Positions 35,751 to 39,095 of a DNA stretch of 64,000 nt are shown here, one piece after another. The DNA lies in the NCBI GenBank assembly GCA_039586755.1, contig JBDHJU010000011.1, positions 14,412 to 78,411 of the forward strand, in the 5' to 3' direction. The notes beneath the pieces are model-generated. The model was not told where the DNA came from. It made no database searches and saw only the letters and a list, made by a program, of their open reading frames with translations. Each line of letters starts with the position of its first letter. Position 1 is the first letter of the stretch. The stretch is from Gemmatimonadota bacterium. Its GTDB lineage: Bacteria > Gemmatimonadota > Gemmatimonadetes > Palauibacterales > KS3-K002. Position numbers and translations under genes: made by a program.

Positions 35751-36758
35751 ATGCTAGCTCGGAGTTTGCCATGGAAGCGGCGCGCCGTTCAGCCGGCGCG
35801 GAGGTTGGCTCGGTGGCGCTGCCTCGGCCTGCTTGCGGTCCTCCCCGTCCTCGTCAGCGTCCCGCAGGACGGCTTCGGCCAGTACGAGAATATCGTCCTG
35901 CCCGTCGACACGATCGAGTACCTGTTCCGCTACGAGGAGTTCCGGATAGCGCAAATGAGGGACACGCGCTTCGAGGGGGACAGGACGCAGGTCGTCGTGC
36001 TGGCGTTTCCCGGCTACATGCCGCTACGCATCAAATGGGCGGCGGCTCCCAGGGGCGCCGACTCGTTCAACAACAAGCCCCGTTTCGAGATAGGGGTCTA
36101 CGAGCTGCAGAAGCTGTTCTTGGATGAGGAGGACTACGTTGTTCCTCCGACCGTGCTCCGCAGCATGACGTTGGATGAGTATCCTCGGTCGGATGCCGTG
36201 ATCACGACCTTCCGAGGCATCGATGCTGTGCTTGTTCTCATGCAGTACTGGCTGAGCCAGGTCACCGACGAAGACGTCTACGACGAGGACAGAATCGAGG
36301 ACGATTCGCTGTACGCCCGGCACCTGGCCGACATGAACATCCTGACCTATCTGGTCAGGCACGCGGACGCCAACCCGGGCAACATGCTGATCTCGACGGC
36401 CGGTAACGCCAGGGTCTTCGCCGTGGATAACGGCGTCTCGTTCGGCGACATCAGCGATCGGCCCGACGACTGGCGGAAGATGCGCACCGAGCGTCTGCCG
36501 CAGGGCACGGTGGAGAGGCTGCGGGGCATTAGCGAGGAAGATCTGCACCAGACGCTGGGCGTGTTGGCCCAGTTCGAGGTCCGAGGCGGCCGACTGGTGC
36601 AGGTCGAGCCCACCGAGAACCTGGACCCGGGGAACGGCGTGCGTCGCAAGGACGATGTCGTTCAGTTGGGGCTGACCAGACGTGAGATCGGGAGAGTCTT
36701 TGGACGCCTGGAGGATCTGCTGAAGGACATAGACGAAGGGAAGTACGATATTTTCTGA
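35751..36758 (+). CDS. Secreted atypical kinase-like protein (PI3/4-kinase-like catalytic signature), paralog 1
   Basis: ATG at 35751 lies 6 nt after GGAGGG; the ORF is open from 35628. Signal-like N-terminus RWRCLGLLAVLPVLVSV. Candidate Lys in PLRIKWAAAP, catalytic-loop-like VRHADANPGNMLI, and DFG-like VFAVDNGVSFG. 335 aa. Confidence 0.5.
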   Translation: MLARSLPWKRRAVQPARRLARWRCLGLLAVLPVLVSVPQDGFGQYENIVLPVDTIEYLFRYEEFRIAQMRDTRFEGDRTQVVVLAFPGYMPLRIKWAAAPRGADSFNNKPRFEIGVYELQKLFLDEEDYVVPPTVLRSMTLDEYPRSDAVITTFRGIDAVLVLMQYWLSQVTDEDVYDEDRIEDDSLYARHLADMNILTYLVRHADANPGNMLISTAGNARVFAVDNGVSFGDISDRPDDWRKMRTERLPQGTVERLRGISEEDLHQTLGVLAQFEVRGGRLVQVEPTENLDPGNGVRRKDDVVQLGLTRREIGRVFGRLEDLLKDIDEGKYDIF

Positions 36759-36765
36759 GCAGGGT

Positions 36766-37773
36766 ATGGAGCCCGCAGGGATCGCAGTGTTGTATCGGGT
36801 CGCACCGGGGAGGCGGCAGCTGGGCGCACGGAACGGTCTGCTGTTGTCACTTTGCGTCCTGGCTGTCCTGGGTCGTCCGCTCGACGTCTTCGGCCAGTAC
36901 GAGAACTTCATTCTGCAGGTCGACACGCTCGAGATGCTATTGCGTGACCGTGAATTTTGGATCGCGCAATTCGCCGACAACCGTATCGTTGGAGACCGGA
37001 CACAGCGCGCGGTCCTGGTGTTTGAAGATTTTCCGCCCATAAACGTCAAGTGGGCGGCGGCGCCCAGGGGCGCCGACTCGTTCAACAACCGCCCGCGCTT
37101 CGAGATGGCGGTCTACGAGCTGCAGAAGCTGTTCCTGGACGTAGAGGACTACGTCGTGCCGCCGACGGTGGTCCGTGCGATGCCGCTGGACGAGTACCCG
37201 CGGAAGAACGCCGTGCAGACGACGTTTCGCGGCATAGACGTCGTCTTGGTTCTCTTGCAGTACTGGCTGAGACAGGTCACCGACGAAGACGTCTACGACA
37301 GGGACCGCATAAGGGAAGATTCGCTGTACGCCCGGCACCTGGCCGACATGAACATCCTGACGTATCTGGTCAGGCACGCGGACGCCAACCCGGGGAACAT
37401 GCTGATCTCGACGGCCGGCAATGCCAGGGTCTTCGCGGTGGATAACGGCGTCTCGTTCGGCGACATCAGCGATCGGCCCGACGCCTGGCGGAAGATGCGC
37501 ACCGAGCGTCTGCCGCAGGGCACGGTGGAGAGGCTGCGAGGCATTAGCGAGGAAGATCTGCTCCAGGCGCTGGGCGTTTTGGCTCAGTTCGAGGTGAGAG
37601 GTGATCAACTGGTCCAGGTAGAGCCGACCGAGAACCTGGACCCGGGGAACGGTGTGCGTCGCAAGGACGATGTGGTTCAGTTGGGGCTGACGACCCGTGA
37701 GATCGGGAGAGTCTTTGGACGCCTGCAGGATCTGCTGGAGGATATAGACGAGGGGAAGTACGAAATCTTTTGA
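36766..37773 (+). CDS. Secreted atypical kinase-like protein (PI3/4-kinase-like catalytic signature), paralog 2
   Basis: 335 aa, colinear with paralog 1. The VRHADANPGNMLI and VFAVDNGVSFG motifs are identical, and the N-terminus LLLSLCVLAVLG is hydrophobic. Confidence 0.5.
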   Translation: MEPAGIAVLYRVAPGRRQLGARNGLLLSLCVLAVLGRPLDVFGQYENFILQVDTLEMLLRDREFWIAQFADNRIVGDRTQRAVLVFEDFPPINVKWAAAPRGADSFNNRPRFEMAVYELQKLFLDVEDYVVPPTVVRAMPLDEYPRKNAVQTTFRGIDVVLVLLQYWLRQVTDEDVYDRDRIREDSLYARHLADMNILTYLVRHADANPGNMLISTAGNARVFAVDNGVSFGDISDRPDAWRKMRTERLPQGTVERLRGISEEDLLQALGVLAQFEVRGDQLVQVEPTENLDPGNGVRRKDDVVQLGLTTREIGRVFGRLQDLLEDIDEGKYEIF

Positions 37774-37784
37774 GTGGGAGACGT

Positions 37785-39095
37785 ATGAGGCGAAGGGGCT
37801 TGACGGCAATCGGCATCGCCGCGTTGGCCGTCCCGTTGCTGGCGGCCGCTGGGTCGGCGGTCATTCTCGATTGCGGGCCGGCGCGGTCCGCTCCCCAGGA
37901 GGAAGCCGGGCGGTCCAAGATCCGTGTCGACGGCGAGTACGGCCTCTGGGTGCGGGAGATCGGTGACTCGTTGCAGATGCGCTGGTTTACACGGGAACAC
38001 GGTGTGGGGTACCTGGAAGTGGTCGTCGACGGCGGAGCGGTCTACGGGGTCGAGACCGAGCCCAGCACGGCCCACGCCGCGTCGTTTCCTAAGCCGGCCG
38101 CACCCGAGCTGACGCTGCGCTACGGTGGTCGCGGGGATCCGCAGGACGCGCACGAGACGGTCATCTACTTCGACCTGCCGCAACGCCCGATCGAGACAGA
38201 GTTCGAGGGCGTCGACACGCTCTTCGTCGTCGGTGATGTCCACGGTCAGTACGACACGCTCACCGCGCTGTTTCGCAACGCCGGCCTCATCGACGGCGAC
38301 GATCGCTGGACCGGCGGCCACAAATGGATCGTGCTGCTCGGCGACCTGGTCGATCGCGGGCCCGATGTCCACAAGGTCTTGTGGTTTCTGTACGAGCTGG
38401 AGCGCGACGCGACGCGACAGGGCGGCCGCGTCCAGGTCCTGTTGGGCAATCACGAGATCATGGCGATGAGCGACGACCCCCGGTACGTGTCGGCGAAAGA
38501 GAGGCTGATCGCCCAGAATCACGGCGTCGCATACTGGCAGCTGTTCGACCCGCGAAGCTCGATTCTCGGGAAGTGGCTTGCATCGAAACCGGCGCTGATC
38601 AGAATCGACAGGGTGGTACTAGCGCACGGTGGTGTCGGTCCCGAGTACATGGCCTACTCGATCCCCGAGTTCGACGACTCGCTGGGGCTGTTCATGAGCG
38701 AGGAGTGGTTCTACCGCATGGCCGACAGCACAGCTGCTTACACCCCACTGGACTCGGTGACGCTCTTCCGTCGCATCGACTTCTTCTTCGACGAAAACAG
38801 CGTCTTCTGGTATCGGGGCTACATGCATACCGATACCCTCTATACCGATAGCCTCGCGTCAGTACTCCAGCAGGTTCTCGAGCGGCACGACAGCGACCTC
38901 CACGTGGTCGGCCACACGGCGGTCGATTCGATCCAGACAATGTACGATGGATCTTTGGTCGCTGTGGACCTGAAGGAAGCGGCAACGGAGATGCTCCTCC
39001 TGGTACGCAGTCCCGAGAGTTACGAGCGGTATCGCTATACTTTGTCGGGGCCGCCGCAGCCGCTCGAGATCCCCGTCGCCGCCGGCGGCGGGTAG
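37785..39095 (+). CDS. PPP-family metallophosphatase, Shewanella-like phosphatase (SLP) type, with an N-terminal signal-like segment and an extra N-terminal domain
   Basis: LFVVGDVHGQYDTL, LLGDLVDRGPD, LLGNHEIMAMSDDPRYV and LAHGG are the PPP motifs GDxHG / GDxxDRG / GNHE. N-terminus MRRRGLTAIGIAALAVPLLAAAG. The ORF is open from 37770, overlapping the upstream stop; GGGAG precedes the ATG at 37785. Confidence 0.75.
   Translation: MRRRGLTAIGIAALAVPLLAAAGSAVILDCGPARSAPQEEAGRSKIRVDGEYGLWVREIGDSLQMRWFTREHGVGYLEVVVDGGAVYGVETEPSTAHAASFPKPAAPELTLRYGGRGDPQDAHETVIYFDLPQRPIETEFEGVDTLFVVGDVHGQYDTLTALFRNAGLIDGDDRWTGGHKWIVLLGDLVDRGPDVHKVLWFLYELERDATRQGGRVQVLLGNHEIMAMSDDPRYVSAKERLIAQNHGVAYWQLFDPRSSILGKWLASKPALIRIDRVVLAHGGVGPEYMAYSIPEFDDSLGLFMSEEWFYRMADSTAAYTPLDSVTLFRRIDFFFDENSVFWYRGYMHTDTLYTDSLASVLQQVLERHDSDLHVVGHTAVDSIQTMYDGSLVAVDLKEAATEMLLLVRSPESYERYRYTLSGPPQPLEIPVAAGGG

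Follow-up and report, generated by a model that had tools for sequence, protein, structure and literature searches.

Two adjacent genes, A and B, in a 64,000-nt stretch of a Gemmatimonadota genome (contig JBDHJU010000011.1, positions 14,412 to 78,411 of the forward strand; this whole stretch is the window, in whose coordinates all positions are given) are very likely old tandem duplicates whose 3' part was later overwritten by gene conversion, probably from A to B. Gene A (35751-36758, plus strand, 335 codons) is predicted to encode an exported PI3/PI4-kinase-like protein and, as the probable donor, is of type 1 over its full length, type 1 being the first copies and single copies of this family in related genomes and type 2 the second copies. 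Gene B (36766-37773, plus strand, 335 codons) is its tandem paralog, an open reading frame (ORF) that starts 7 nt past the stop codon of A and would be the mosaic recipient. A synonymous change-point lies within the pair, the trees of the N-terminal and C-terminal parts conflict, synonymous rates between orthologues are normal over the same codons, and the gene is present once or twice, in the same synteny, in related genomes.

Identity along the gene pair

Genes A and B align in full register, with a constant offset of 1015 nt and zero indels, and their homology stops at the stop codons (31% identity immediately beyond). A repeat search picked up only the parts that are 70-80% identical and missed the high-identity tract, and identity was then computed directly. 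Over codons 42-161 (35874-36233 in A) the genes are 72.5% identical at the nucleotide level and their products agree at 85/120 residues (71%), in keeping with the first-pass annotation of this DNA, according to which the N-terminal halves differ at one residue in three to four. The repeat which that annotation had delimited in the 3' part, 36303-36758 against 37318-37773 at an offset of 1015, proved exact and gapless, with 424/456 identical nucleotides (93.0%) and, for codons 185-335, 142/151 identical residues (94%). Its description as almost identical suits the core tract in codons 185-257 (36303-36521 in A and 37318-37536 in B, plus strand), where 213/219 nucleotides (97.3%) match, and is too strong for the whole stretch at 93%. 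The core holds 5 synonymous and 1 non-synonymous changes between A and B and includes, in both genes, the HADANPGN catalytic loop (36360-36383 in A, 37375-37398 in B) and the DNG metal-binding motif (36426-36434 in A, 37441-37449 in B).

The boundary upstream of the core had been called sharp, and the change-point reported below is indeed significant, but the boundary extends over a stretch instead of falling at one position, with identity climbing from ~36234 and the core starting at 36303. This transition zone (codons 162-184; 36234-36302 in A and 37249-37317 in B, plus strand) is identical at 59/69 positions (85.5%), with 8 mismatches in the 18-nt block 36285-36302. In an AlphaFold model of B it falls at the hinge between the N-lobe and the C-lobe of the kinase fold, and the homogenised 3' part spans the C-lobe, where the DNG motif and the catalytic loop lie, together with a C-terminal beta/helix subdomain. 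Downstream of the core, codons 258-290 (36522-36620 in A and 37537-37635 in B, plus strand) form a less homogenised patch (85.9% identity) in which the proportion of synonymous differences (pS) is 0.40 versus 0.09 in the core (Fisher test, p = 0.002), showing no difference from the N-terminal part (p = 0.26). Homogenisation resumes in a 3' terminal tract (codons 291-335; 36621-36755 in A and 37636-37770 in B, plus strand; 91.3% identity, pS 0.23).

A scan for terminator-like structures returned a hairpin that is present in B only (37217-37246, plus strand), with a perfect 11-bp stem (AGACGACGTTT...ACGTCGTCT) and a folding energy of -14.2 kcal/mol. It ends exactly where the identity between A and B begins to rise; the homologous segment of A is unfolded (-2.6 kcal/mol). 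The position may be a coincidence or may be tied to the end-point of the tract.

The near-identical repeats had also been flagged as a hotspot for assembly collapse, an expectation that was not upheld. That the mosaic is a metagenomic chimera or a collapsed repeat is highly improbable: the lineage is uncultured, and a related short contig (L019, carrying the gene P0016) may itself be a chimera that joins copy 1 to copy 2, but both genes in the window are complete and stand in tandem, their longest identical runs measure only 54, 46 and 44 nt, and a 2.3-kb region is base-for-base identical in three other metagenome-assembled genomes (MAGs) of the same organism (L003-L005). Since the 3' parts differ at 32/456 positions, neither gene was built from the reads of the other.

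Synonymous divergence across the boundary

A change-point in synonymous divergence had been set beforehand as the test of the conversion claim, and one was found: by maximum likelihood on Nei-Gojobori counts it lies after codon 161 (~36233), with pS at 0.53-0.55 to its left and 0.20 to its right (log-likelihood gain 13-17), and only 0-1 of 5000 codon shuffles reach the observed gain (p <= 2e-4). Between A and B the synonymous substitution rate (dS) falls four- to ten-fold across the boundary, from 0.96 (codons 42-161) to 0.23 (codons 185-335) and to 0.10 for codons 185-257 taken separately. Between A and five orthologues dS is flat (N-terminal part, 0.52-0.80; codons 185-335, 0.50-0.74; codons 185-257, 0.44-0.60), and contingency tests of the A-B pair against the A-orthologue pairs are significant (Fisher, p = 0.001-0.03). 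The 3' part is therefore not intrinsically slow-evolving. The event had been called recent, which holds in a relative sense, the core dS of 0.10 amounting to roughly a fifth of what separates A from its orthologues.

These values also bear on an explanation without recombination, in which the 3' part would be more strongly constrained, in its protein or its nucleotide sequence, and selection on the N-terminal part would be relaxed or diversifying; the diversifying form had been offered as one cause of the boundary. Protein sequence in this family is best conserved in the C-lobe, which has many invariant columns, and the N-terminal part of B shows a modest relative-rate excess (see below), both of which fit such an account. 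Set against it are the drop in dS itself, the normal orthologue dS of 0.44-0.60 in the same codons, a ratio of non-synonymous to synonymous rates (dN/dS) in the N-terminal part of ~0.23 rather than above 1 (dN 0.224, dS 0.96) and the conflict between the N-part and C-part trees. Because dS changes across the boundary and dN/dS in the N-terminal part is ~0.23, we exclude selection acting alone, which could account for the pattern only with a very small probability.

Fragment analysis pointed to the same tract. In a permutation test of the GENECONV type, which was our own implementation and is distinct from the GENECONV and RDP programs, the best fragment shared by A and B comprised codons 185-333 (p < 1e-4, polymorphic sites of 11 sequences). 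The result was retained with third positions only (p < 1e-4) and with third positions of protein-invariant codons (p = 0.008), and the test was not significant for the orthologue control pairs.

Conflicting trees and type membership

Neighbour-joining (NJ) trees were bootstrapped with 500 replicates, using our own code, which may count a bipartition twice, so that supports of up to 1.08 were taken as ~100%. In the nucleotide tree of codons 42-161, A and B are sisters in 0/500 replicates, and a type-1 clade that includes A and leaves out B has 89% support. In the trees of codons 185-335 and 185-257, A and B are sisters in essentially all replicates and nest within type 1. The protein trees agree (A with B in the C-terminal part, 84%), and for either half of the gene A falls within the type-1 clade. 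The type-2 C-terminal part is distinct, with G208, P220, T230, N236 and one extra codon; B has the type-1 states at these diagnostic sites, without the extra codon.

For the N-terminal part of B, a search for strict diagnostic residues of type 1 and type 2 yielded two sites only, both plesiomorphic, and it was set aside. Since such residues are too few, profile scoring was used there. The type-1 minus type-2 score of B is -11 bits in codons 42-95 (type-1 members score +14 to +35), +9.6 bits in codons 96-161 (A scores +8.5 there) and +54 bits, strongly type 1, in codons 185-335. The conversion of the 3' part that the first-pass annotation had proposed is supported by the change-point, the fragment test, the orthologue dS and the conflicting trees.

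The 5' part of gene B

The segment of B in codons 42-95 (36889-37050, plus strand) is a hyper-divergent part of the N-lobe and the sole part of B that is not type-1-like, being 60-72% identical at the nucleotide level to A, type 1, type 2 and outgroups alike. Its GC content is 0.54 and its GC content at third positions (GC3) is 0.70, versus a GC3 of 0.85-0.91 for the same codons in A and eight relatives, which points to AT-biased mutation under relaxed constraint or else to a foreign origin of this short segment. With L014 as outgroup, B shows a relative-rate excess over type-2 paralogs (13-16 versus 3-6 unique changes), and with L015 as outgroup the excess is not significant (chi2 range 1.3-6.3). 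The unusual divergence of the first ~55 mature residues of B is a real secondary effect, with a modest rate excess. All paralog pairs in all lineages have a common divergence hot spot at codons 52-80, and B therefore behaves there as a normal second copy. The following segment, codons 96-161 (37051-37248, plus strand), leans towards type 1 without being specifically A-like: its identity to type 1 (0.86-0.92) exceeds that to A (0.80-0.86), and its pS to A is 0.35-0.71. It is possibly the trace of a very old conversion.

Several points weigh against an old duplication followed by conversion. In the nucleotide tree the N-terminal part of B is sister to type 1 (71%) and joins type 2 with only 5% support, and a search of 5.8 billion proteins with this part returned two matches, at no more than 72% identity, and found no closer relative, be it an orthologue of B that escaped conversion or a donor from elsewhere. 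The lowered GC3 in codons 42-95 could inflate dS locally. Synonymous sites outside the tract are near saturation, and the age of the duplication is for that reason only bounded; the methods were confined to NJ trees and Nei-Gojobori (NG86) dS.

Some of the same observations would suit a history in which B is a young full-length duplicate of A, of an age corresponding to the C-part dS of ~0.2, and its 5' part was exchanged, by homologous recombination, for a divergent foreign allele or was hyper-mutated, the mosaic having then formed at the 5' end and not through 3' conversion. The equal distance of codons 42-95 from all known relatives, their atypically low GC3, the 5% support for B with type 2 and the single-copy state of the closest type-1 relatives of A (P0007/L017 and P0005) all fit this. 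We nevertheless consider it unlikely: no donor-like sequence is found among the 5.8 billion proteins (best 72%), the two-copy arrangement recurs, in unchanged gene order, in several related lineages, the hot spot at codons 52-80 in all pairs suggests an ordinary gene in position 2, codons 121-161 have a normal GC3 and yet an A-B pS of 0.71, and the mixed ages within the 3' part fit repeated conversion better than one duplication.

Under an old duplication with later conversion, the direction was most probably from A to B, as B stands in position 2 and its codons 42-95 are not of type 1. The two-copy state is common to other lineages, and these codons lean towards type 2 in the profile score, with the 5% support noted above. 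The direction is not proven, because the N-terminal part of B is a long orphan branch and its orthology to type 2 is uncertain.

Locus layout and related loci

Gene A is taken to start at ATG 35751, which follows a GGAGGG Shine-Dalgarno sequence at a distance of 7 nt and at which the gene calls of the identical loci L003-L005 also begin; an alternative ATG further upstream would give a longer gene, and 35751 is preferred. Downstream of B lies a PPP/ApaH-like metallophosphatase gene, its product predicted to be exported (37785-39095, plus strand; Pfam Metallophos, E = 6e-14), with weak NCBIfam matches to ApaH-like and Ser/Thr phosphatase models. Its mechanically called ORF begins at TTG 37770, overlapping the stop codon of B; ATG 37785 (436 aa) is favoured by the gene calls in relatives, including L003, and by an upstream GGGAGA. 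Two minus-strand ORFs, 36024-37088 (354 aa) and 36937-37809 (290 aa), were rejected as high-GC artefacts that mirror the sense genes; they overlap both kinase-like genes and look duplicated too, without independent support. A promoter scan found none.

Among the matches seen, the kinase-like family is limited to Gemmatimonadota. Comparison with orthologous loci, a check named alongside the original claim, revealed one or two copies in the same synteny in related genomes. The genes on both flanks are conserved. On one side they encode a methyl-accepting chemotaxis protein (MCP), a periplasmic binding protein, a small PLDc_N protein, a PMT-like membrane protein and a 152-186-aa protein, and on the other side the metallophosphatase, which with a single exception adjoins the kinase-like gene(s) in every related locus examined. 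Two tandem kinase-like genes with the same flanks are found in L006-8, L009-11, L018 and L020, one of these lineages also having a downstream CBM9/DUF5916 gene, as in the window. A single gene in the same synteny is found in L012/L016, L013, L014, L017 and the P0005 contig; L001 likewise has one copy, judged by copy count alone. Such variation in copy number in otherwise identical synteny implies that the second copy was lost, or the gene duplicated, more than once. Scans of genome and metagenome contigs with B gave three loci only, none of them a close two-copy relative.

The window (35751-39095) and L003-L014, L017, L018 and L020 have in common a cassette of one or two kinase-fold genes followed directly by a metallophosphatase gene, with a PMT-like (GT39/ArnT-like) membrane protein of 483 aa and the 152-186-aa protein encoded divergently upstream. 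A predicted extracytoplasmic kinase/phosphatase pair of this kind would be unusual, and we found no literature on such a cassette.

In the other two-copy genomes the fragment tests are marginal overall (p ~0.015-0.07), with the L006 and L009 pairs at p ~0.015-0.02, uncorrected for multiple tests. The two L009 genes (L009_1 and L009_2, L009:5001-7040) share a derived C-terminal tail, GEIEDVYERL...EGEYEI, the two L018 genes (L018_1 and L018_2, L018:1-1435) share RLLDLL, and the L006 pair (L006:5001-7106) has a pS of 0.12 in codons 258-290.

The gene P0016 (L019:43-1105) has a type-1-like N-terminal part joined at ~codon 175-190 to a type-2 C-terminal part that is 100% identical in nucleotide sequence to P0019 (L020:432-1506) from a different sample, with the phosphatase start directly after it. 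Its junction falls in the same region as the A-B boundary of the window. This gene, on a 1.1-kb contig, may be a fusion by unequal crossover, the result of a 5' conversion or a metagenome assembly chimera. We considered P0016 and P0019 as a case of conversion in the reverse direction and, given the ambiguous origin of P0016, kept them out of the evidence. The recombinational change in copy number that the first-pass annotation had foreseen at the repeats is plausible in principle; the single-copy relatives are compatible with it, as is the hybrid-looking L019, which may be a chimera.

Protein family and fold

Both proteins match the Pfam family PF00454 (PI3_PI4_kinase), A with 28.5 bits and B with 30.0 bits against a cut-off of 27.1, and the match is limited to profile positions 108-186 of 241, the catalytic-loop region. 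Residues H204, D206, N211, D226, N227 and G228 are invariant among 38 family members, K95 of the N-lobe is conserved in at least 90% of them, and A and B have all seven. The AlphaFold (AF2) model of B shows a bilobal kinase-like fold (pLDDT 78.9, pTM 0.79). Its best match in the PDB is PI4KIIalpha (4hnd; E 1.3e-6, template-modelling (TM) score 0.46); Fam20 (5xoo) reaches a TM score of 0.51, and Vps34 and eukaryotic protein kinases are also among the best matches, the TM scores being only 0.4-0.5 overall. A sequence search of the PDB gave no meaningful match. At the N-termini of A and B a positively charged stretch is followed by a short hydrophobic one, on account of which both proteins are predicted to be exported.

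On the evidence of sequence and model, A and B appear to be uncharacterised exported proteins with a PI4KII/Fam20-like kinase fold, and putative kinases. The likeness to PI4KIIalpha and Fam20 lies in the HxDxxxxN and DxG motifs and the N-lobe lysine, all kept in the family, and, for Fam20, also in the predicted export-type signal at the N-terminus. In contrast, sequence identity to PI4KIIalpha and Fam20 is only 14-18%, and A and B are bacterial, with ~290 residues in the mature protein and a C-terminal beta/helix subdomain. Export, if the prediction holds, would make a phosphoinositide an unlikely substrate.

The converted tract had been described as the catalytic half, which is apt in that it has HADANPGN, DNG and the C-lobe, but the N-lobe with Lys95 also belongs to the catalytic domain. 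We found no support for the accompanying suggestion that the N-terminal part serves in substrate recognition; by analogy with the kinase fold, the N-lobe would bind the nucleotide rather than the substrate.

Probable partial gene conversion and its implications

Taken as a history, our data suggest that an exported kinase-like gene was duplicated in tandem before this organism and several related Gemmatimonadota lineages diverged. Type-1 sequence would subsequently have been copied over the 3' part of B, from the lobe hinge (codons ~162-185) through the stop codon, by non-reciprocal homologous recombination between the direct repeats. Two or more tracts or ages seem to be involved, a young core in codons 185-257 and older or patchier homogenisation in codons 162-184 and 291-335, with codons 258-290 left largely unhomogenised and only codons 42-95 of B keeping an identity that is not of type 1. 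Homogenisation may have spread slowly in the 3'-to-5' direction. The conserved C-lobe would supply the identical stretches that recombination uses, and the diverged 5' part may block extension of the tract, be shielded by selection for a distinct function, or both.

Concerted evolution of bacterial paralogs is exemplified by tufA/tufB in Salmonella. Gene conversion among prokaryote paralogs has been surveyed (PMC6053082), and gene families of M. tuberculosis offer a further comparison (PMC13061034, PMC12046097). As in such cases, the A-B pair combines within-genome paralogs that are closer to each other than to their orthologues over a defined tract, incongruent trees and, on our reading, non-reciprocal homologous recombination between direct repeats. 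It differs in that only the 3' ~45-50% is homogenised and the 5' part is anciently divergent, and in that A and B are uncharacterised accessory genes, unlike the core translation genes and antigen genes of the tuf and antigen-type cases. Unlike whole-gene concerted evolution, conversion in this family is sporadic, the other two-copy lineages having small tracts only. A resemblance to unequal-crossover hybrids is seen in the joint at ~codon 175-190 of P0016 on L019, which coincides with the boundary region of the window and may come from an assembly chimera. The event in the window is a conversion and not a deletion or fusion, because both genes are retained.

The phenomenon is standard and conversion as such is not surprising; what is particular here is that it is found in an uncharacterised gene family, where A and B, as bacterial genes outside the core set, give a clean case of partial concerted evolution. 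Since their N-terminal and C-terminal parts have different histories, whole-gene trees and identities for A and B are misleading, and in these MAGs orthology and copy number should be assessed segment by segment.

A more speculative possibility, to which we give little credence, is that the kinase-kinase-phosphatase cassette forms a Gemmatimonadota-specific extracytoplasmic phosphorylation module in which both paralogs need a common C-lobe and C-terminal subdomain, the 3' homogenisation being kept by selection. If so, the shared part may serve, for example, in docking to one and the same exported phosphatase or envelope substrate, a specificity element of ~55 residues in the N-lobe would be the only difference between the two proteins, and the repeated 3' homogenisation in several lineages would not be a neutral by-product of tandem repeats.

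With the conversion boundary at the kinase hinge, the paralogs differ durably in a small N-lobe segment only, and this segment is a pointer to what distinguishes the two proteins. The family, predicted to be exported and PI4KII/Fam20-like, beside a likewise predicted exported PPP-type phosphatase and conserved across Gemmatimonadota, could merit study.

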